Below are positions 10,923 to 31,290 of a stretch of 64,000 bases of DNA, piece by piece (position 1 is the stretch's first letter; each line of letters starts with the position of its first letter). Source of the DNA: Octopus vulgaris (taxonomy: Eukaryota); assembly GCA_951406725.2 (NCBI GenBank), contig OX597823.1, positions 34,720,001-34,784,000 on the forward strand, written 5' to 3'. The position numbers and the translations under genes were made by a program. The notes beneath the pieces are model-generated. The model saw nothing but the letters and a program-made list of their open reading frames with translations. It had not been told where the DNA came from and made no database searches.

Positions 10923-11022
10923 NNNNNNNNNNNNNNNNNNNNNNNNNNNNNNNNNNNNNNNNNNNNNNNNNNNNNNNNNNNNNNNNNNNNNNNNNNNNNN
11001 NNNNNNNNNNNNNNNNNNNNNN
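10923..11022. other. Assembly gap (100 N)
   Basis: Run of N. The flanks belong to unrelated elements (DNA transposase on the left, LINE ORF2 on the right). Confidence 1.
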
Positions 11023-12099
11023 GACATGCGCTGAGGTTAAGACATCTGTGGCTCTACCTGGATGGTGAACGGGTGTGGTCTCCGTTAGCAAAACTGATGT
11101 TTCCCAAGTTCACTAGTTTCGGTGGATGGGAAACCTGGCTGAATCGTAGATCGAAACTGGTACATGGTACACGGAGTGTCGCAAGGCTCTCCTGCTATTC
11201 CGTCGCTCGGGCAACGCCTGCGGTGGGGGTTCCACCACATTCTTCTATAGAGGGTTGGTAGAGGCGGAATGTGAAGACACCTTGGGGAAACCCTGGGTCT
11301 CGACGATAATCAGCTGGCCAGTCTGTTCCGACGTACGTTCGAGCCGAAGACACTGGACAACTTCCAGAAGTCTCTGGCATGGCAATGCTACAGAGGAGCT
11401 CTACCTGTTCGGGATAAACTCGCAAGGCACGGTGGCCAAGACAGTCCGATATGTCCAAGATGCGGGCGGGATAGGGAAACCGTCCCGCACGCTATTGTTC
11501 ATTGTTCGGACGTGTCTGAGGTGTGGGTTTATGCCGAACAGCTGTTGTCAAGCACACGAAGAGTACAGCTGTCGACTGAGTCGATTAAAAAAATTGACCC
11601 ACCAGATTTCCTCGCGAAAGAAGGTAAGTTTGTTTTCTCGTTGTGGTAGCAATTGCGAAAGAGGTGATATGGAAGACGAGAATGAAAGGTATACAGTCAG
11701 GCAAGTTCATATCCGGCCCTGGTTTGATGAATTACTTCATCTACCACCTGAAAAGGAAGATAGGGCTGGAGAGAAATGCCTGACTAGGAGAGTGTATGAA
11801 GAACGATGGAAGGATGTAGCACGGAAGTTGAGAATGAAATGACACCACATAAATGTAGATCAAAACGAAACCAAAAGTATCAGTGGTGAGGCGGGGCTCG
11901 TGGGGTCCGAGCTGAACCCGCCCCACTCCACCTGTAGTGTCTTCCGGTCTTTTCCTCATTCGATTTTTTAATTTTTGCAATTTTTGTAATTTTTGAAATT
12001 TTTAAACTCGATTTTTTGTAAAACCCATTCGTGAATCTGACCCCACATCAGGTTGTATTGTCCTCTTATGTTCGCCCCTTGTGGGTAATAATAAAACAC
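11023..12099 (+). mobile_element. 3' end of a Tx1/L1-clade non-LTR retrotransposon (ORF2 C-terminal zf-RVT domain plus 3'UTR)
   Basis: A frame missed by the ORF track reads LAWQCYRGALPVRDKLARHGGQDSPICPRCGRDRETVPHAIVHCSDVSEVW, the zf-RVT CCHC motif of L1/Tx1. The 3'UTR has a GCGGG-GCTCG..CGAGC..CCCGC hairpin and ends in TTGTATTGTCCTCTTATGTTCGCCCCTTGTGGGTAATAATAAAA. Confidence 0.88.
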
Positions 12100-12113
12100 C
12101 CGATAGACGTTAC

Positions 12114-12161
12114 CGATTGTATTGTCCCCTCTATGTGGCCCCTAGTGGGTAATAAAGAAAT
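12114..12161 (+). mobile_element. 48-bp, extremely 5'-truncated retrocopy (3' tail only)
   Basis: CGATTGTATTGTCCCCTCTATGTGGCCCCTAGTGGGTAATAAAGAAAT, flanked by CCGATAGACGTTAC (12100-12113) and CCGATAGGACGTTAC (from 12162). Confidence 0.8.
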
Positions 12162-12177
12162 CCGATAGGACGTTACT

Positions 12178-13936
12178 TCTATGCGTGTTGTTATCTGTGA
12201 CTAGACGGTGAAGTTTTTTCTGTGTAAATTGATTTAATATCGCGCGTGGCGTTTGCCTCCACGTGTGGAAACCTTCCGAAGAAGGTGAATTGACCCTCCA
12301 GTCATGGCGACTTACGCGGGGGTCACCGGGAAAAATAACGATTCGGCGATAATCATAAAGGAGGTTTTCTTTGAGAAGGATAAACTCAAAGAATATGAAA
12401 AGCTCTTCAAAAGGGAGGGTGATAGCGTGAAGCTAATCCCCCCGCGAAAGCAAAAGAGGACAAAGAAAGCAAGACAGTGACATACAGAACCCAAGACAAA
12501 AATACGAAGAAACTGGCAAGAGTGGAGATAGCCGAAATTGAAAAATGTCTGGGAGACATAATGGGGAAAATAACCTATGTGAGTAGAGGCAAGAAATTTG
12601 GTACGGTGGAGGTGAGATGTGCAACGGAAGAAATTGCAGCCTCACTGGCTACCACTGTACTAAGAGCCGAAAAATTCACAATGTGGCCCTCATACAAGGG
12701 AAGAAGAGGGGTCCGGGTTAAAATCCCGAATATACCCCCAGAAGTGAAAACAGAATGGCTGGCAACAGCTATTCTAGGAGCAGCAGAAGAGGAAGTGGAG
12801 GTGGAATCTATTAAGGAGTCCAACGCGGTAAACTGGAGAGGATATGGGGTAGAACTGTGTTTGATGGCCACAAAAGAGGATATTGAAAGGTTCCCCTACA
12901 GAATTGAAATTGAAGAGGAAAAAACCCTCAGTGTAATTGTAGAGGGAAGAAAACCAAACTGTTACTTGTGTGGGACAAGGGGGCACATTAAAAAAGAGTG
13001 CCCGTTATACGAATTCGTAGCGGAGTGCGAGCAGGAACTTGAAGAAAAGAAGAATACTGTAAATGAAAAAGAAAACATAGAAAAGGAAACAAAACAACAA
13101 GAGAAAGGAAATAATAAGTCAATGAAGGAAAAAGAAATAAAAGAAAAGAAAGAAATAGAACCAAAACAGAGTCAGGAAAAAAAAAGGAAAAAGAAACAAC
13201 AGGAAAAAAACAAGAGAGAGATCAGAATCAAACGAAAAGAAAAGACGGCACACAAAAGGAAAAAGAAAAGGAACATAAAACACGAGAGAAAGAGAGAACA
13301 GACAAAGAACCAAAAAGACAAGAGAAGGAAGGAGAAAGAAAAGAAGGCAAAAAGAGAGAAAGAGAGAAACAAAGAGAGGAGAACAAGGAAGAAATAAGCC
13401 CGAAAAGAAAATGAAGGAAAACGTAGGACGGAAACAAGATTACTACTACTACAAGTTAATAACCTTCCATTTCTGCCCTGAAATGAAAGACTTGACATGG
13501 AATACGGAGGGACATATATGGGTCGACAGGAATACCGATCAGTGGCAGGAGACTGCTCTAATCCCCGAAGAAAGAGTCGCTGAGTTCCTCAGAGCTGCCG
13601 GAGAGAGTGTAATATTTTACACGAAGGTTCGAATGAGAGAGCGGCCGCCTGAGGGCTCAGTGATTGACTTTAGAGAATTGAAAGCTATTATGGAATATGT
13701 ATAGAATTGTGAGAAGAAAAAAAAAGTGAAAAAAGAAAATTTTGTGAAATATATGTGACGAAAATGTAACCTCTCGATTCCGGGGATCGAGTGGGCATTT
13801 ACATCTCATTGTAAATATTCTTTCATATGTCATTTTTTACTTTTATTTTTTCCTTTTCTTGTCATTCGCTTTCTTATTTTAAGTTCCCCGATTGTATTGT
13901 CCCTCTATGTGGCCCCTAGTGGGTAATAAAGAAATA
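12178..13936 (+). mobile_element. ORF1-only non-autonomous non-LTR element, copy 1 (HAL1-like; ~32 nt 5'-truncated relative to copy 2)
   Basis: 5'UTR, one gag-like ORF, ~230-nt 3'UTR ending in the Tx1-like tail. No endonuclease or RT sequence. Bounded by CCGATAGGA on both sides. Confidence 0.8.
12304..13704 (+). CDS. ORF1 (gag-like nucleic-acid-binding protein with CCHC knuckle), frameshifted in the assembly
   Basis: ATG 12304 MATYAGVTGK..., CYLCGTRGHIKKEC (CX2CX4HX4C), a K/E-rich linker, and a C-terminal ~90-aa domain ending at TAG 13704. Frame breaks at C6 (12438-12443), A9 (13177-13185) and ~13407. Confidence 0.7.
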
Positions 13937-13945
13937 CCGATAGGA

Positions 13946-15740
13946 GGTTTGAGTTCGGTAGGAACACGTGTCGGAAATCTATGCGTGTTGTTATCTGTGA
14001 CTAGACGGTGAAATTTTTTCTGTGTAAATTGATTTGATATCGCGCGAGGCGTTTGCCTCCACGTGTGGAAACCTTCCGAAGAAGGTGAATTGACCCTCTA
14101 GTCATGGCGACTTACGCGGGGGTCACCGGGAAAAATAACGATTCGTCGATAATCATAAAGGAGGTTTTCTTTGAGAAGGATAAACTCAAAGAATATGAAA
14201 AGCTCTTCAAAAGGGAGGGTGATAGCGTGAAGCTAATCCCCCCCCCGCGAAAGCAAAAGAGGATAAAGAAAGCAAGACAGTGACATACAGAACCCAAGAC
14301 AAAAATACGAAGAAACTGGCAAGAGTGGAGATAGCCGAAATTGAAAAATGTCTGGGAGACATAATGGGGAAAATAACCTACGTGAGTAGAGGCAAGAAAT
14401 TTGGTACGGTGGAGGTGAGATGTGCAACGGAAGAAATTGCAGCCTCACTGGCTACCACCGTACTAAGAGCCGAAAAATTCACAATGTGGCCCTCATACAA
14501 GGGAAGAAGAGGGGTCCGGGTTAAAATCCCGAATATACCCCCAGAAGTGAAAACAGAATGGCTGGCAACAGCTATTCTAGGAGCAGCAGAAGAGGAAGTG
14601 GAGGTGGAATCTATTAAGGAGTCCAACGCGGTAAACTGTAGAGGATATGGGGTAGAATTGTGGTTGATGGCCACAAAAGAGGATATTGAAAGGTTCCCCT
14701 ACAGAATTGAAATTGAAGAGGAAAAAACCCTCAGCGTAATTGTAGAGGGAAGAAAACCAAACTGTTACTTGTGTGGGACAAGGGGGCACATTAAAAAAGA
14801 GTGCCCGTTATACGAATTCGTAGCGGAGTGCGAGCAGGAACTTGAAGAAAAGAAGAATACTGTAAATGAGAAAGAAAACATAGAAAAGGAAACAAAACAA
14901 CAAGAGAAAGGAAATAATAAGTCAATGAAGGAAAAAGAAATAAAAGAAAAGAAAGAAATAGAACCAAAACAGAGTCAGGAAAAAAAAAGGAAAAAGAAAC
15001 AATAGGAAAAAAACAAGAGGGGCATCAGAATCAAACGAAAAGAAAAGACGGCACACAAAAGGAAAGGAACATAAAACACGAGAGAAAGAGAGAACAGAGA
15101 AAGAACCAAAAAGACAAGAGAAGGAAGGAGAAAGAAAAGAAGCCAAAAAGATGGAAAGAGAGAAACAAAGAGAGGAGAACAAGGAAGAAATAAGCCCGAA
15201 AAGGAAAATGAAGGAAAACGTAGGACGGAAACAAGATTACTATTACTACAAGTTAGTAACCTTCCATTTCTGCCCTGAAATGAAAGACTTGACATGTAAA
15301 ACGGAGGGACATATATGGGTCAACAGGATGACCGATCGGTGGCAGGAGACTGCTCTAATCCCCGAAGAAAGAGTCGCTGAGTTCCTCAGAGCTGCCGGGG
15401 AGAGTGTAATATTTTACACGAAGGTTCGAATGAGAGAGCGGCTGCCTGAGGGCTCAGTGATAGACTTCAGAGAAGTGGAAACTATGATAGAATACGTATA
15501 GAATTGTGAGAAGAAAAAAAGAAAAAAGAGAAAAAAGAAAATTTTGTGAAATATATGTGACGAAAATGTAACCTCTCGATTCCGGGGATCGAGTGGGCAT
15601 TTACATCTCATTGTAAATATTCTTTCATATGTCATTTTTTACTTTTATTTTTTCCTTTTCTTGTCATTCGCTTTCTTATTTTAAGTTCCCCGATTGTATT
15701 GTCCCATCTATGTTCGCCCCTAGTGGGTAATAAAGAAATA
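13946..15740 (+). mobile_element. ORF1-only non-autonomous non-LTR element, copy 2 (1795 bp)
   Basis: Highly similar but not identical to copy 1. Begins GGTTTGAGTTCGGTAGGAACACGTG after CCGATAGGA (13937-13945) and ends TAATAAAGAAATA followed by CCGATAGGATGTTACT (15741-15756). Confidence 0.8.
14104..15501 (+). CDS. ORF1 copy 2 (CCHC gag-like), continuous if one base is added to each of two homopolymers
   Basis: Same protein as copy 1. The only breaks found are C9 (14238-14246) and A9 (14980-14988). Confidence 0.7.
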
Positions 15741-15987
15741 CCGATAGGATGTTACTTATTCATCGATACTCAAAAACTGAACTTTCACCAACTGAATACT
15801 CGTCATGTAGTGCCTTACCGCTTTCTGCTGGATTTTACCTCGAGAAAGGAACCCTGAGGAAGGAGGGCTGAATTTCGAATACTTCGTACAACAAACGGCT
15901 GCAGTTTAGGAAAAAAAATGTAATCGCCTCTTTCAATTTAGGTTTTCATTTTTCATGTTTTTATTTGTATTCATTGTTATGTTTATA

Positions 15988-16470
15988 TTGAGTTATCCGG
16001 AAAGTTCGTTCCGATTTTTAAAGGAAAGTACATGGTCACTAAATACTCTTCCCAGAATTGGGGTGGTTTCAAGGCAAATAATTCATCAAGGTATCTTTTT
16101 ACGTCATCTAAGGAATTGAAATTTTCACCATTAAGACTATTCTGCAGAGACCTGAATAAGTGGAAATCCGAAGGAGTAATATCTGGTGAATATGGAGGGT
16201 GGGGTAAGTCACCCCAGCCAAGCTGCAGCAATTTTTGTCTGGTTCCCAAAGCATCAAATGCCGATAATGAATTTTTCTCATCTTTTAATTTAAAGGGTTA
16301 CAGAATTAACACAGGTTATTGGAACATAAACCTTCTTCCACGAAAAGATAGATTAAACTGTGCTCCAAATGGAGGTGTAGTCAAATCCTATTTTATGGAC
16401 TCAAACATGTTCTAAAATAAGTCGAAAGATAAGCTACTATAAATCTGCAAGAACTTTCCGGACAACCCAA
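15988..16470 (-). mobile_element. Internally deleted mariner element (483 bp) with both TIRs and TA TSD
   Basis: TIRs TTGAGTTATCCGGAAAGTTC / GAACTTTCCGGACAACCCAA, TA on both sides. Encodes LGWGDLPHPPYSPDITPSDFHLFRSLQN. Confidence 0.9.
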
Positions 16471-16870
16471 TATTTCTATATTTTTATCATGAAATTCTTA
16501 ATATAAATATGTGGATATTCGTATGGAATAATACCTCATGTGCTACATCTGAATTTTCTTGTCTGAATGTTTTAAGACAAATATCCGAAATTTTTATCGT
16601 ATACCACATTTTATTAATACTTAGCTCATATACGGAGACAAAAATGTTGTACTATATACTGCAGGTTATCTCCATTAAAATTATATTTAGCATTAGAATT
16701 CTTCAAGTAGTATAAAAATGGTTATTGTCTGCATCATTCGAAAGCGAAATAAATTTTGCATAAGGTGTAAAAGATAAAAAATAATTTGTATGGTGTTAGT
16801 AACAAAATATTTTGTAAGAAATAGAACTTTTATCGTCTGTCTTAAATATATTTTCGCCAGTGTATATATC

Positions 16871-19432
16871 TCAGGTCATCCCATAAGTTCTGTCTGAATT
16901 TTGGATAAAGAATACAAGTGATCAAATGTTATATTTAATTGAAAGTTAATCATCAATGTACTTTCCCTAATTATCTATGACTTACCTCCATCTATTTACA
17001 AGCTTTTTAATCCCATCAACGTAAAACTCTTTTGGTTTGAAAGCGAAGAACTCTGAAATGTCAGGTTCGACCTCCCCCTGGCTTGCGAAAGTTGTATCCC
17101 CCTACTAATTCTGTAAACTATGAAACAAATGGTATCCTGAAGGAGTAAGGTCGGGAGAATAAGTTGGATGAAGAAATTTTTCCAAACCGACCCCTTCGAT
17201 CTTCTGTGATGTGATCTTTGCAGTGTGGGGTTGCGCATTGTCCTGATGAAACATCACTCGTTTTCGACTCACTAAAGCGGCTCTTTTTTCCTTCAAAGCT
17301 TGGTTCAAACGCTCTAATTGCTGACAGTAGACTTGAGCATTGATTGTTGCATTGGGTGGTAACAATATAAAGTGAATTACGCCTTTGCAATCGCACCAGA
17401 TAGAGAGTAGAACCTTTTTCCCATGAAGTTCCCTTCTCGGTTGTGGTTGAGAATTTTCCCTTTTACCAAGCCACTGTTTACGACGTCTAACATTTCGATA
17501 GAAAATCCATTTTTCATCACAAGTCTATCGAAAAAGGGTGAAATGAGTTCGCGAGAATGGAGAGAAGAGCAGATACCAACTCGGGATTTGCGGTTGCTTT
17601 CGGACAATACATAAGGCACCTATTTTCCAAGTTTAGGAACCTTTCCACGTTGTTGAAGATGACGATGAACTGTTGTATGGTTTGAAGTAAGCTTTATTGT
17701 CAATTCTTCAACTGATAATGACGGATTTTCTTCAAGTAATGCCTCGAGGAGCTTGTCAAACTCAACTGGACATCCTGTTCGATATTCATCTTCAATTTTG
17801 CAGACGATCTCCTGCAAGTTCTTTCATTCGAGCACTTTGCTATAAACTGAGTGTATGTTTCGAGTCACTTCGGCATCAGAATTACCTTTATTGTACTCAT
17901 AAAGAATTATATGTGCCTTAAATGCTCCTTGGATACTTCCATGTTGAAAGGGTTTTAATCAAAGCAATTTTAGGGTGTCCACGAAGTCTGGGTTTATGGA
18001 ATAAAATCATAACATAAACAAATAAATATAAGAAATAATAATTTTCCTTTTTTACTTTTGTTTAAATTAAATTTTAAAATACTTTACTTTTCTAAATTTA
18101 TTTGTTATTTTTTCTACAGATGATCGAATGATGGCTCTGTCTAAAGAAGAAAGAATCCCAGATCGAATGATGAATCTGTCTAAAGAAGAAAGAATCGAGT
18201 TAGTATTATTAAGTGGACGAGTAGGATGGTCTTATCGCAAAATTGCGGAAGAATTTAATCTTCCACACCCTTGTAGGCAACCTATTTATTTTACTGCCGT
18301 CAGGAAATTGATCAAGAAATTTAAAGAAACAGGCAGTGTTTCGGATAAACCCCGTTCCGGTCGACCAAAGACTTCAGATGAAACTAAAGAGGCTGTCGAG
18401 GCTAAAGTTTCTGCTAGCTAGCCCCCAAAAATCACTTCGTCGGACATCTACGGTGTTAGGTGTTCCAAAACCAACCATCCACAAAATGCTGGTTGAAGAA
18501 AAGTTTCATCGATACAACCTACAGATATTGCATCACTTAAATTAAGACGATCCTGATAGACGAATAAATTGGATGAAAATATCAATTTTACGAAAAACTT
18601 TGTGTTGTTCAGTGACAAAGCTACGTTTTATGTAAATGGTGAGGTCAACAGACAGAATCTTCTATACTGGTCTCGAGGTAATCCACATTGGATGGATCTA
18701 TCCAAACAGCAAGACAGCAAAAAGGTGATGGTGTGGTGTGGTTTTTGGAAAGCTCATGTTCTAGGACCCTTCTTCATTGAACATGTAACGGATGAGACTT
18801 ATGCAAATATATTGAGAGACAAATTAATATCTTAAATTGAGCGCCTAGGCGAGGACCTTCCGAATTGGTTTCAGCAGGATGGGGCCCCTACCCATTTTGC
18901 CACAACTGTTAGAGATTGATTTAATGACACGTTTCCTCCTCACTAGATTGGAAGAAGGGGTCATATGGAATGGTCCCTTCGTTCACCAGACCTTTCTCCC
19001 CTTGATTTCTTTTTCTGTGGTATGTTGAAAGAGAAAGTTTACTCAATAAAGATTACAGATTTAAAACACATGAGAGAACGCATTATCAGTCAGTGTGCTT
19101 AAATTGATGGCAATGTAGACTTATTTAATCAAGTTCACCTGAATTTTGCAAGGCGCATCAAGTTATGCATTGAAAATGATGGAAATCACTTTGAAAATAT
19201 TATTTATTATAATTAAATAAAATTGATTTGTTTTAAAAGTATGTGTTAATTCCCATGTATGCAAACTTTGTGGACACCGTCTATTATTTTGTAAAACAAT
19301 ATTGAATTAGTTTAAACGTACACAAATGCATAAAAATAATTTTTAATTGAATTAGACATTTGCAAATACTATTAAATTTCATTCAACTCTAAAAAACAGG
19401 TAAAATTGGACAGAACTGACTGGATGACTTGA
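16871..19432 (-). mobile_element. Decayed mariner transposon hosting a nested DD41D element
   Basis: TIRs TCAGGTCATCCCATAAGTTCTGTC / GACAGAACTGACTGGATGACTTGA. Fragments FHQDNAQPH...HPTYSPDLTPSGYHLFHSLQN and HTH-like LLEENPSLSVEEL...TTVHRHL. Confidence 0.85.
17971..19283 (+). mobile_element. Near-full-length decayed Tc1/mariner DD41D (rosa-type) transposon
   Basis: TIRs GGTGTCCACGAAGTCTG / CAAACTTTGTGGACACC. Encodes KFKETGSVSDKPRSGRP, FSDKATFYVNGEVNRQN and FQQDGAPTH...WSLRSPDLSPLDF (41 codons between the Asp residues, two of them now stops). Confidence 0.88.
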
Positions 19433-21216
19433 TATATATAATCTATGATATTCTAGTAAGTTTCAAGTTTATAACACCTTGATATCTCATGTTATCTCAT
19501 TTTATATGCCTAAGACGTTTATTTTCTATTCTGGTTTTTATATATTTCTATACATTATATTTGTATCTATAATTTATTTTAAGACGAAACATAATACGAT
19601 CCTTGTACGAATGAAAGAACAAGAATGTCCTCTGGAACGTTTATCTTCCACCGGCGTTTGTAATCGATGGTGACATGTGCGATGATTTTGCGACTATCTT
19701 ATATTTTACAGAGAAATTGGAAGGCCCGAATGTAAGTCAGCGCTTTATGCATAATTCAATATTCATAGTTCTCTATTTCTAACAGAAATTCTGTCCTCAA
19801 TAACTATAGATCTATTTCTAAATGTATTTCTTTTCCTTCATGCACTCCCGTCTGTCTCTTGACAAAGCTTTCTTTCTCCAGCGTTCACCACGTCACCTCG
19901 TTAGGGTTAAACAGCCCTTAGCGAAAATTTTGACTGTCCTGATTTTATTAGCAGCTTTGACGTGCCACGTATCTCAAATTTTATCTAATTTGGTTTGGGG
20001 GAGCAATTGCTTTGACGAAGACACATCTTGTTGCAATGCAGAGCAAGTAAAATTGCCAACATCTGAGGAAGAGTTGTTTGTTTTTTATATTTTGCCTTCA
20101 CGCTATAGTTCTCTGTGTAATTAAGATTCTTCTTCCTCTCCTTCAAAAGCCAAGCCAAGCCAAGCCACCTGTTTATAGTGGTAATAACAGAGCCATAGCG
20201 CTCACTGTGGTCTCGTAGCCGTGGACAGTGAGCCCAATGGCGCCCAGAGCCCAGCTCAACACACTCCTTATACCCTAAGTAAGTCATGTGTAAAATTTGA
20301 ATGAAATTGGTTGTGTAATTCTCAAGTTTTAGGGAAACACACAGACAGACAGACACAAATTCTCAGATACATAAAAGAATGAGAGTGGGTGATGTTTTGT
20401 TTGTTGGACCAATGTATTAAGGTAGTATTGTTTTATTGTTTTAAAACGAAAGAGGCAATGTGTTCGTTTCAAAAATAAAAAATACAAACGTCCGCCAATG
20501 GGAAGACAGTTCATATTCGATTAGAGCACTCTGGGTATAATCATAAAAGTGAAAAATGGAATTTTTAGGCAAATCAAACAGTGAAAAACTAAAAGCAAAA
20601 ACATTAAAAAAGATATAATATAGAAAATATAAAATTGAAAAATTTAAATTAAATTGAAAATAAAAATTAAATTATATTTATAATTTGTTTTAAAATATAT
20701 ATATCTATGAGAAAGTTTAATATACATAACTACAGATATATACACTTTGTATATATACATTATATATACATATTTATATATAGAACACACACACATACAT
20801 TATATATACATATTTATATATAGAACACACACACACACATACATATAAATGAACGCAAGAATATCTGATTCATAATAATTGTTCTCATGCTCGTGTGTTG
20901 TTGGTGACAGACAGATACGTAAAAGAACGCCGATGTAATGGGAAGGTAAGAAACAGAGTGAGTGAAAAAGAGAGGAAATAGCGAGTGTGACAGATACTTT
21001 AAATAACGGTAGTGGAACTATCAAAGTTATAGATAAAGGGGAGTGAGAGGGTACTGGAGGAAATAGCGTGAGTGAGGAAGATGGCCCCTAGCAACCACAC
21101 CTTTTAAGATAGGGATTTCTAAGGTAGCCCACAAGCTTCGTCACCTATTTCTACATGTCCCTGTAAATTTTGGAGCGAATCGGACGGGACGTAGTGGCAT
21201 TGAAAGCGATCCAAGC

Positions 21217-21253
<37 letters not shown>

Positions 21254-21881
21254 CTCTTATTATAAAAGGCAGATTTTATCTGCCTCCCTTTGTCTCTTAT
21301 AGAAATCTACAATATAGGATTTCTTCAATTACAATTTACCTAGCATTTTTAAGAGTAGAATGCATCGGGTCATGCCAGGTCCAGTTTTAAAAATTTCAAC
21401 CCCAATTAAGCAAAATTTAGAGAAAACCCACATTGTGGTGTGTAAGTCAAGTGCTTTTCTTATTGTGGGCTAGAGCACACGCACACACACACACACACAA
21501 AAACGGAGCGATCTGATTCACTCACGCTATCACTCTAATTTCTACTCCTTTCTCTTTGCAAGTGTGCAACGATTAAAGTGAAACTATTTCTATAAAACGA
21601 GAGAAGTGTACCTTAAACCACTACTAAAAAAAAAAACACAGCAAACAGAAACAAATAAATACATAACGATTTACTCCTCACACAATTTCTTCAATTAGAG
21701 TTTACCCATGATTTTTCAAAGTACTTCCATTGGGTCATGCCATACAAAATTTCTTTCAATTTTACCCCCAATTAAGACAAAATTCGAGAAAACTCAATAT
21801 TTTAACATTTCACTCTGCATATTACTCCCACTTCCTCTTTACACACATAGACACGCAAATATATAAATAAAATTGTAAGCT

Positions 21882-21928
<47 letters not shown>

Positions 21929-22388
21929 GTGTGAGTGTGTGTGTGAGTGTGTGTGTGTGTGTGCGTGCGTCTGTGTGTGTGAGGGTGCGTGTGTGTCTGT
22001 GTGTGTGTGTGTGCGTGTGTGTGAGTGTGTGACAGGGATGAGCAAGTCAAACTGGTCATCCTTTTTGCTAGATCACCTAACATCTAAAGTTATCTCTAAG
22101 TAGCAGTCGCCCAAAAGTGTATATAGACACACACATGTATGTATAATGTGTGTGTATATATTTCCATAGAGGTAACCATTCACTCCATACAAAGTTATTT
22201 AGGACGAATTGGACGAATATAAGATCTAAAGTATATCCAAGTAGCAGAAAGATCGCCCAAAAGTGTATATAGATATTTAAATGTATTTATATATTCATCT
22301 ATACACACATGTATGTATAATGTGTGTGTATATATTTCCATAGAGGTAACCATTCACTCCGCACAAAGTTTTTTAGGACGGACGAAAA

Positions 22389-23906
22389 TCTTTATATATA
22401 AAAGAAAGGTTGTGTGTCTGTCTACTCCGATTTAGATTCCTAACTACTCCCACATTTTGCGATGCAGTTTAACCAAAACCGGGTATCTTATAGTCGTGAT
22501 TCATATCGAGCCCTTCTGGGTATTAGCGCGCGTCTATGATGAGTCTACGATTTTAAAAATAATTTACCATCATTTTTTTCCATTTTAATGCATATTTTTT
22601 TAAATAAAGGGAAGTAACACTCAAACTTCACACCAATATGCGTGCTCATATGCGACGTAATATCACATCAGCAGCATTTCCTCACACCCCCTTGCACTTG
22701 GCGAAGGGTATGAAAATGGTAATATTGCCATCGATTCCATTTGTACCATTGTTAAGACGCCTCCTGATTTCAGAGATGCAGTGTTCCCAGATCTACAAGC
22801 TAATTATCAGAATATGGATTGGATTGGCATATGAAGACAAGTATTCTAAATAAATGTTGTTGTTCAAATGTATTGAAACTGTTACTAACGTTCCCCAAGA
22901 AAGTCAATCAAAACATTATTTGCACAATTTATGGAGATACGTGCATGATTTAGAAATATTCTTATCCGGCAGCGCAGTAATAAATAAAAACTAACGTAAA
23001 TATTTATCATATTTTGCAAGAGTTATCTCCCTTACACTTTGTCTAAATGTTATAGTCTTGAAAGATACGGTGGCGTAAGAGAAGTTACACATCATATCTA
23101 TAAAAGGCATGATGTGTGTGCGTGTGTGTGTACATAATTGTAATTTATGCACGTCCACAAATTAGCACACATGTCGCTCAACATTCTATCTGGATTTTGT
23201 CAACTTATTTTTTTCTCGAGGCACCCGCAAATAGCGGTAAAATTCTATTTTCAGCCATAGCATTTAGCCATAAAAAAATCAGCCATAGCTTTCTGACGGC
23301 GTCTAACAAAAAAAAAATACGATAAAAAAAAGTGGAAGAGGAGCAGAGAGTTTCACGGGAAAGACAAAGTGAGAGAGGGAGAGAGAGTAAGTGACGATGT
23401 TTATAAAAAAATATCAGCCATAGATTTTTGACGGCGTCTAACAAAACAAAATAAGATAAAGAAAAGTGGAAGAGAGTTTCACGGCGTCTAAACAAAAAAA
23501 AGGGAACGACAAAGTGAGAGAGGGAGAAAGAGAGCAAGTGACGACGTTCATAAAAATAAAATGTAAAATGTTTTGTTTTTTCTTAAACAAGAGATATAGT
23601 GTTCAAATTCAGGATGTTTTTGAAAGACACTATATTTTATAATCATAGTATATATACTTTCTCACACAACAATTACAATATATTTATTTTAAATCATCTA
23701 TTTATTTTAAATCGTTCATCTTTCTCCCCCCCCCCCTGTCTCTTACACACATTACTTTGGGTGCAAAAGAGTTTTGTTTTTATTTTATGCCGAGTAAAAA
23801 AGTGTTTTGTTGAGAGTCGATATTACTTAGTTTGGTTTGAAATAAGGAACTTGATTAGCTTAATAATCGTAACTTAATCCTGGGTAAGGCCGGGTTATAC
23901 TGCTAG
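22389..23906 (+). mobile_element. Non-autonomous Helitron(s) with a PIF1-like helicase remnant
   Basis: 5' TC+TATATATAAAA-type starts at 22389 and 23097. 3' hairpin CCTGGGTAAGGCCGGG followed by CTAG at 23903-23906. Remnant KLHTNMRAH...LGEG...AVFPDLQANYQNMDWIG at ~22623-22830. Internal ~130-bp tandem units at 23270-23560. Confidence 0.75.
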
Positions 23907-30121: not shown

Positions 30122-31228
30122 TCATTTGTAAACATGTATCTGGGTAGAGTCACTAATCAATGACTGAGCTGCATATTTCTTGAACATGCTCCAAAATGTT
30201 GGAAGAATTGGATCAGTATAATAGTGCACCAAATGTGGGAAAGCTTTTCGGAAATGGCTAGTGGCTTCTGGAAGATGATAGTGGGGTACTATACTAAATA
30301 GATGGTGGATCTGGTGTGTGCCGATGTCATGGGTTAATCCATGCACCCAACCATAATCCCTATCAATTGAGGATAATTGCCCTGAAACATAGTTCCATTG
30401 ATCATCTGAATACCAAGGGATGTTGACATCATGGTGGTGTAAGAAAGTAAACACCACCATGTACGTGGAAAACACAAAAAGAGGGATGATATAATGGTGA
30501 ACAAGCATTAGAAACCCTTTCTGGTGGTAAAACATATACAAAATATAAGCCATTATGAAGTCTCCTATAAAAGATAAAGTACATCCCAGGATATGGTTCT
30601 GAAATAGAAAATGGAATAGATTAAAATGATTGACTTGTCGTGGCTTATAACCACGCACCAAGTAGCCAAACCATCCTAAACCAAGACCAAATCCAGGTAA
30701 AAGCTGAGTTGATGTTTTTCGAAATTTTTTCCTGATGGGATAATAGACTTCATCTTTATCAATATTTCCAGTGTTTTTATGATGGTTTTTGTGGGACAGT
30801 TTCCAAGTATAGTAAGGACATAACAGAAAAGAATGTAACAGGGTTCCCATTGTATCGTTTAATAAGGGATGATGGGAGAAAGAACCATGTCCACAGTCGT
30901 GTCCCAGAACAAAAATAGCAGTGAACATGGTCCCTTGTAAGAACCAATAAAGGGGTATATGTACAATTCCTGCCGACACAGGTAAGTTATTCATGGCCCA
31001 CTCACTAATTACGTACAGGACTGTCATACTAACGACATCACGAACAACATAATACATTGATGTAGAAACTTTAGGATTGAAACATCGAGCTGGTATAACT
31101 TGTTTGATTTGCGTGATGGTTGGCAAGTTCTGCGGCACACCAACTTTAAAAAGTTCTTCAACCTCCTGTTCCGAAGTGCCAGATGTTTGCATTGAAGTGG
31201 CTCCATCACAGTCTTCTTCCAAAACCAT
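30122..31228 (-). CDS. Methyl-end (omega-x, Delta12/omega-3 type) fatty acid desaturase; 368 aa from ATG 31228, or 375 aa if the upstream exon supplies MLRHIDT
   Basis: Intact ORF with three His boxes (HDCGH, HKNHH, HQIHH), a FAD2/FAD3-like N-terminal motif PTITQIKQVIPARCF, hydrophobic segments, and no cytochrome b5 domain. ATG lies in ACCATGG just after a polypyrimidine tract plus CAG acceptor (exon starts at 31233). Confidence 0.95.
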   Translation of the reverse strand: MVLEEDCDGATSMQTSGTSEQEVEELFKVGVPQNLPTITQIKQVIPARCFNPKVSTSMYYVVRDVVSMTVLYVISEWAMNNLPVSAGIVHIPLYWFLQGTMFTAIFVLGHDCGHGSFSHHPLLNDTMGTLLHSFLLCPYYTWKLSHKNHHKNTGNIDKDEVYYPIRKKFRKTSTQLLPGFGLGLGWFGYLVRGYKPRQVNHFNLFHFLFQNHILGCTLSFIGDFIMAYILYMFYHQKGFLMLVHHYIIPLFVFSTYMVVFTFLHHHDVNIPWYSDDQWNYVSGQLSSIDRDYGWVHGLTHDIGTHQIHHLFSIVPHYHLPEATSHFRKAFPHLVHYYTDPILPTFWSMFKKYAAQSLISDSTQIHVYK

Positions 31229-31290
31229 GGTGTCTGTCAAAAAATAAAAAAAAAAGACAAAACTGAATAAACATCAAGTGATATAATATT

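Follow-up and report, generated by a model that had tools for sequence, protein, structure and literature searches.

In crocodilians, the Tx1-type long interspersed element (LINE) Tx1-Mar and its short interspersed element (SINE) partner SINEU-3 are described as targeting a Mariner element, as forming tandems sandwiched between target-site duplications (TSDs), and as carrying 5' extensions derived from the target (Kojima 2015, PMC4494074). In Dictyostelium, the account of TRE5-A.1 and TRE5-A.2 gives a partner lacking open reading frame (ORF) 2, tandems at occupied sites, and an ORF1 protein that binds TBP in vitro (PMC5391098). HAL1 (half-L1) is presented as a non-autonomous element that has only ORF1 and the tail of its LINE (PMC5753468). 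These three are the closest known systems to the one described here. The Drosophila elements HeT-A, TART and TAHRE are reported to make mixed head-to-tail arrays that grow at one end through successive transposition (PMC5537684), and transposable-element tandems that began as double insertions, R1 included, are reported to have a TSD at their junctions and to expand later by unequal exchange (McGurk and Barbash, 10.1101/158386). A 2026 annotation of octopus repeats lists 13 recently active L1-Tx1 families; the words 'target' and 'nested' are absent from its main text (PMC13282606), and no description of the present system was found in the literature searched, Repbase, Dfam and subscription journals being outside that search. 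Here we analyze a stack of retrotransposons of the non-LTR (long terminal repeat) kind in a 64,000-nucleotide stretch of the Octopus vulgaris genome, hereafter the window (assembly GCA_951406725.2, contig OX597823.1, positions 34,720,001 to 34,784,000; locus C10:34.72M of a 2.8-Gb genome). The stack is built from a two-ORF LINE and a 1.8-kb ORF1-only partner, which we call U. It belongs to a real targeted stacking system, of which the polarized, probably upstream-anchored growth is the interesting part.

In the window the tail GTGGGTAATAA is followed by the word CCGATAG at 12100, 12162, 13937 and 15741, as a sequence-only reading had noticed, and the stretch of word left before each next element measures 14, 16 and 9 nt. 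The tail joined to CCGAYAGG has 16 matches at 9 loci genome-wide and none in the control, so the junction pattern is not due to chance. A paralogous stack at C10:43.64M has an identical stub, but with a 16-nt word and three extra stub bases, and the window's 14-nt word was therefore probably 16 nt long as well before decay, or has been mis-assembled. On its left the window stack runs into a 100-N assembly gap. An inverted LINE pair adjoins the left end of the paralogous stack, at C10:43.62-43.63M (L181, L073).

At paralogous loci the full LINE is 5.27 kb long and codes for ORF1 and a 1132-aa ORF2. The latter (L083) has Exo_endo_phos (the APE endonuclease), RVT_1 (reverse transcriptase, RT) and zf-RVT domains; its best solved relative in the PDB is human L1 ORF2 (E 4e-72, versus only 1e-24 for R2), and among named relatives the closest comes from Argonauta (64% identity, covering 41% of the query), no named Tx1 family being among the matches. 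By these domains and matches the LINE belongs to the L1/Tx1 group, which bears out at group level the Tx1-like affiliation proposed earlier. The LINE end in the window, with zf-RVT at 11275-11646, is about 96.7% identical to copies elsewhere, some of which have an intact 1132-aa ORF2; its tail ends in TAAAACA, without poly-A. U codes for ORF1 only, with a CCHC knuckle (seen also in the window's 1.8-kb unit), and has no ORF2. Its ORF1 is 38-39% identical to that of the LINE, and the two elements have only the last ~40 nt, the 3' tail, in common. Unbroken ORF1 frames (465-467 aa) occur in three of 65 U units. The ratio pN/pS for U ORF1 is 0.19-0.22, which as a sequence measure places this ORF under purifying selection, and on these features U is HAL1-like: an ORF1 under selection, no ORF2, and a 3' tail common with its LINE. 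Near ORF1 codon 48, 45 of the 65 units have six C in place of the in-frame seven (about 12437-12446 and 14237-14249 in the window); one short-read contig appears to carry seven, and the run may be a homopolymer error or a -1 frameshift site. With an AATAAA no more than about 10 nt from where the element ends, the next word is likely part of the transcripts.

Is the word the target of these elements? The same tails precede many different words, which rules out the word as an element terminus; it is, as the sequence-only reading held, a TSD. Among off-target, 5'-truncated LINE copies, five of 13 have TSDs of 16-19 nt. The sequence-only reading had gone further, proposing an endonuclease that recognizes CCGATAGGAYGTTAC and a site regenerated by each TSD, and this we consider extremely unlikely. 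The word does stand at all four window junctions and after 16 tails at 9 loci, and there is a short first-base preference after the nick. The 16-mer CCGATAGGAYGTTAC, however, has 12 exact matches in the genome, every one inside such stacks and none an empty site; CCGATAGGAYGTTACT likewise has 12 matches genome-wide, against 4 in the control, all in such stacks. Family-specific patterns find 119 LINE and 122 U tails (241 in all; such counts must leave out a SINE that has the LINE's 3' end, gives about 24,000 exact tail matches and often stands in 184-bp head-to-tail runs, L001-L030). Tail plus CCGAYAGG occurs at 16 places as against these 241 tails, and the word is thus, on this count, not the family's target. 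Tabulated in genome order, the first 30 LINE and first 30 U tails include one (1/60) followed by the word, and 14 of the 30 LINE tails lie in unrelated sequence. Words vary downstream of the tails, other stacks of up to 22 units have different words, and words differ and drift within stacks. No empty site with the exact CCGATAGG word was found in this genome or among the 15 contig joints displayed out of 26. Empty host-1 forms (see below) with other patches do occur in contigs from runs coded as other organisms, as does a tail joined to the second host-1 site. The tabulation thus gives no fixed target word, only short preferences on either side of the nick.

The stacks sit in two unrelated multicopy hosts. 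Host 1 (40 of 176 candidates scored) is a composite some 25 kb long, with inverted repeats of about 265 bp (93%) at its ends, and insertions fall in a variable patch of 10-30 nt, where several LINE families stand at differing offsets; the window's word looks like a variant of this patch. Mutator-like elements are recognized by long terminal inverted repeats and a 9-bp TSD. Host 1 has the inverted repeats; its single copy with both ends shows no clean TSD, and a transposase was not found in it. Just past the hot spot (about 15757-15915 in the window) most host-1 copies have a splice-donor-like end, judged by eye, and the stretch may be a short first exon. Helitrons start with 5' TC, end in a 3' hairpin and CTAG, insert in an AT context and make no TSD. 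Host 2, a Helitron-like element of 1 kb that contains an old ORF1 fragment and two hot spots, shows these features, with both ends in L229 and the 3' end in L268 (two copies), and no Rep-helicase in the element; one of its sites has 944 exact empty copies. The idea that both hosts are Helitrons was dropped, as host 1 is bounded by inverted repeats and its Pif1 piece is internal. Other LINE families with different tails occupy the hot spots of both hosts at other offsets (L154, L156, L163, L169, L170, L174, L176; L037, L041). A small-RNA gene was ruled out as target: neither host has an Rfam match at gathering score, only sub-threshold microsatellite matches, and no tRNA was found in 8 host loci. 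The targets are therefore not of the snRNA, 5S or tRNA gene type used by Keno, Mutsu and Dewa.

The first 30 U tails (17 loci) are followed by an element head in 27 cases and by host 2 in three, with no other sequence. After the first 30 LINE tails come host 1 (4), host 2 (10, after removal of one microsatellite false match), an element head (2) and unrelated DNA (14). By our own tally of loci, U is on target at 17 of 17 and the LINE at 14 of 28 (Fisher p=0.00025). Among 17 further LINE tails, chosen as singletons, five are on target and 12 are not, two of the latter resembling heads of further elements. For Tx1 elements, more than 20% of flanks in one repeat type has been taken as target preference (PMC4494074); of the 30 LINE flanks here, 10 fall in host 2 and another 4 in host 1, and all 30 U flanks are in stacks or host 2. 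Judged from these flanks, insertion is targeted. Since the ORF1-only partner keeps to its targets more strictly than the LINE by which it is moved, the system lends itself to asking whether endonuclease, ORF1 tethering or RNA-DNA pairing selects the site of an APE-type LINE.

How do the stacks grow? We fetched 12 further arrays; the alignment comprises 65 full U units, drawn from 15 loci. The tree is ladder-like with the arrays interleaved: the nearest relative of a unit lies in another array for 27 of 63, in its own for 35, with one tie. The word to the left of a unit agrees with the word to its own right at 8.6 of 12 leading bases, versus 3.1 for the word to the left of its closest relative elsewhere (n=59). 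When the 22-mer of C7 (below) is left out, the figures are 8.1 and 3.3 (n=37, p=9e-5). The junction word, on these alignments, follows the locus and not the lineage. Along a stack the words drift, each combining its right neighbor's prefix with a donor suffix at near-constant length. Units further left are more derived (190 concordant, 55 discordant and 55 tied pairs on the tree, p=0.00085; 223 to 33 in a tree-free comparison, p=5e-5), and the 5'-most unit is more derived than the 3'-most in 11 of 13 arrays, with two ties and no reversal; the right-hand window unit, U2, is less derived than U1. Polarity among LINE units was also tried and set aside, the copies being too similar to order and one truncated unit distorting the tree. 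Since the tree is interleaved, the word follows the locus and the 5'-most units are derived, the sequences argue that stacks grow through separate insertion events at the 5' end, next to the host. Successive targeted insertion, already suggested from the window sequence, is thereby upheld; a regenerated site as the cause is not, as it would not be expected to confine growth to the upstream host flank.

One or two founding insertions might instead have been multiplied by unequal crossover, tandem duplication and host copying, with no repeated targeting. Such events have left traces. C10:43.64M carries a copy of the window stack, and C8 a partial one; the left 14 units of the C7 array (C7:100.087-100.126M, L189-L193; 39 kb, 22 U units and a LINE head) are near-identical neighbors; one U unit is a mosaic, so gene conversion occurs; and LINE units in one stack are mostly 99.6-99.9% alike. 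Local duplication and host-borne copying of stacks, on this sequence evidence, do occur as well. As the main cause, however, multiplication is largely refuted and very unlikely: the units of one stack come from different clades, U being mixed with three LINE subfamilies, words sort by locus, the age order is common across chromosomes, nick offsets vary among host copies, and host 2 retains its 944 empty sites.

Because growth is polarized, we infer that whatever determines it remains on the upstream side of the nick and is not part of the TSD, and polarized insertion with an upstream anchor is very probable. In host 2, left junctions lie 36-39 nt after TATAAAG in all 14 printed; in host 1 (11 of 12 rows tallied) they lie 34-43 nt after TATTTAAA in eight of 11, the remaining three being about 70 nt from the box. 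Most left junctions come directly after an A-tract and GAAC. A ruler of fixed distance from the TATA-like box is not supported, as the nick keeps to GAAC though the spacing varies (36 vs 39; 38 vs 41 vs 43). This behavior would suit an ORF2 that itself reads a longer upstream stretch of DNA before the nick (the A-tract, TTGAAC and further bases), neither a promoter nor ORF1 playing a part; an A-tract followed by TT(G)TGAAC is common to both hosts, and such reading would account for the polarity equally well. We nevertheless think it unlikely. On its own, the 13-mer found before the host-1 nick does not suffice: of its 97 copies on C1-C4, 84 have no tail within 6 kb, and it sits unused in 33 of the 65 U units (young units, in the 3' untranslated region [UTR], about 190 nt from the end). 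Moreover, the same LINEs use at least four different sites and are off target about half the time, unlike U, and neighboring offsets are used by other families.

Pairing of RNA with the target offers another possible explanation, in which read-through flanks at both RNA ends would alone make the hot spots. At off-target sites the first 5 nt agree with the word that the subfamily has on target (3.2 vs 1.9, p=1e-4), a match that fits either short RNA-primer pairing or an endonuclease preference. The AATAAA near the element end and the in-register chimeric words are also in keeping with such homing, and target annealing has been proposed, in the account given, for SART1Bm and R1Bm (PMC7265360). 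Yet the match ends after about 5 nt (bases 6-15, p=0.10), and junctions inside a stack, which have the same word, would be expected to serve as targets just as well, although growth is polarized. As a sole cause we regard RNA-guided homing as quite unlikely.

Leaders of off-register insertions begin with host-site bases, and RNAs therefore appear to start in target-derived DNA. Because U is targeted more strictly than the LINE and has an ORF1 of its own that is under selection, we favor a promoter factor read by ORF1, as in TRE5-A, although this identification of the anchor is tentative, falling slightly short of an even chance on our analysis. Taken as a whole, the explanation we prefer is a stack of four non-LTR insertions, with TSDs between them, at a hot spot in a multicopy DNA transposon, growing 5', with its site fixed upstream of the nick, most likely by a promoter-bound factor read through ORF1; we give it a probability of about 0.65. 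The LINE ORF2 would nick and prime reverse transcription, acting in trans for U through the common 3' tail. The upstream anchor would be kept only at the leftmost junction, so that every new copy shifts older ones to the right. RNA would start in target-derived sequence, and the cDNA would anneal in register to a 16-19-nt overhang, giving words made of a target prefix and a donor suffix, hence their drift along the stack. The 3-5 nt right after the nick would be selected through read-through RNA pairing or endonuclease preference. Some runs were amplified locally at a later stage, and entire stacks copied along with their host.

Several observations weigh against this explanation. Unbroken U ORF1 frames are few in this assembly (three of 65), TSDs were detected in just five of 13 truncated LINE copies, and 35 of 63 U units have their closest neighbor in their own stack. 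The near-identical left part of the C7 array resembles a nascent satellite, so duplication contributes. The direction of polarity depends on one divergent outgroup unit, with support from the right-hand position of the native host word. The nick tracks GAAC and keeps no set distance, and at the further nick sites (about +70 nt in host 1; the second host-2 site) no obvious box stands at -40; the TATA-like boxes were picked by eye in AT-rich DNA and are candidate promoters from sequence alone. One contig from run X1, which is RNA by guess only, no listed run being recorded as RNA, reaches 33 nt into the host-2 upstream flank, farther than a start near the nick allows, and so weighs against such a start. 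Finally, the 5-nt match had p=0.007 before one on-target locus was relabeled and one mis-parsed locus removed.

Table 1. Parts of the window stack and its downstream host flank (positions within the window)
Feature	Position	Strand	Remarks
Assembly gap, covers LINE 5' part and left stack junction	10923..11022	.	Paralog C10:43.63-43.64M holds at least two LINE units of 5.3 kb there
3' end of the 5.27-kb two-ORF APE-RT LINE	11023..12099	+	ORF2 end with zf-RVT, frameshifted; 3' UTR
Junction word 1, TSD copy	12100..12113	+	14 nt (paralog: 16 nt)
48-bp stub	12114..12161	+	Corresponds to the ORF1-only element's 3' tail
Junction word 2, TSD copy	12162..12177	+	16 nt
U1, non-autonomous ORF1-only element	12178..13936	+	Frameshifted ORF1, 12304 to about 13704; CCHC knuckle around 12957-13004
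Junction word 3, TSD copy	13937..13945	+	9 nt
U2, ORF1-only element	13946..15740	+	Longer 5' leader 13946-13979 contains older host-2-type word
Rightmost word	15741..15757	+	Host side of insertion site, variant of host 1's variable patch
Host 1 downstream flank	15741..22829	+	Nested mariner/Tc1 and Pif1-helicase remnants

The two window U units are 96.6% identical. Elsewhere in the window, an uninterrupted 383-aa ORF on the minus strand (30125-31273) has a Pfam FA_desaturase (fatty-acid desaturase) domain.

The ordered stacks record the history of a retrotransposon lineage, and they illustrate how a cephalopod genome can come by interstitial satellites tens of kb long. If its targeting is separable, a LINE that has intact ORF2 copies would also be of interest for site-specific insertion tools. 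A more specific proposal, that the half-element's own ORF1 homes on the host promoter, that RNA is made from that site and that new copies are written at the leader end, is rather unlikely. If true, each stack would be a tape on which elements and chimeric junction words stand in the order of their arrival, in a manner comparable to a CRISPR array, and a swap of ORF1 or of the RNA flanks could redirect the targeting.

How does the octopus system compare with those already described? With Tx1-Mar and SINEU-3 it has in common a Tx1-type LINE and a non-autonomous partner that prefer a multicopy DNA transposon, and transcription from the flank was proposed there too. The partner here, however, is a 1.8-kb ORF1-coding element and not a SINE, there are two unrelated hosts, and the stacks, unlike the crocodilian tandems as described, reach 22 units and show age polarity and drifting words. 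TRE5-A likewise pairs an APE-RT element with an ORF2-less derivative and inserts at a set position beside an anchor; that anchor, in the account given, consists of tRNA genes and Pol III factors, whereas the octopus host loci show only a spacing to TATA-like boxes. U is like HAL1 in being non-autonomous and ORF1-only and in bearing the tail of its LINE. It differs from HAL1 as presented in that its ORF1 is so far from the LINE's own and has a CCHC knuckle, and in being targeted and stacked. HeT-A has a Gag-only structure and 5' tags. Like the arrays of HeT-A, TART and TAHRE, the octopus stacks are mixed, head-to-tail and grow at one end; unlike them, they are interstitial and TSD-separated and start from an endonuclease site, not a chromosome end. 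Finally, they resemble the double-insertion tandems in having TSDs at their junctions and expanding later, but differ from these, as reported, in that repeated targeting builds long ordered stacks at many loci, with a junction word that changes along the way.

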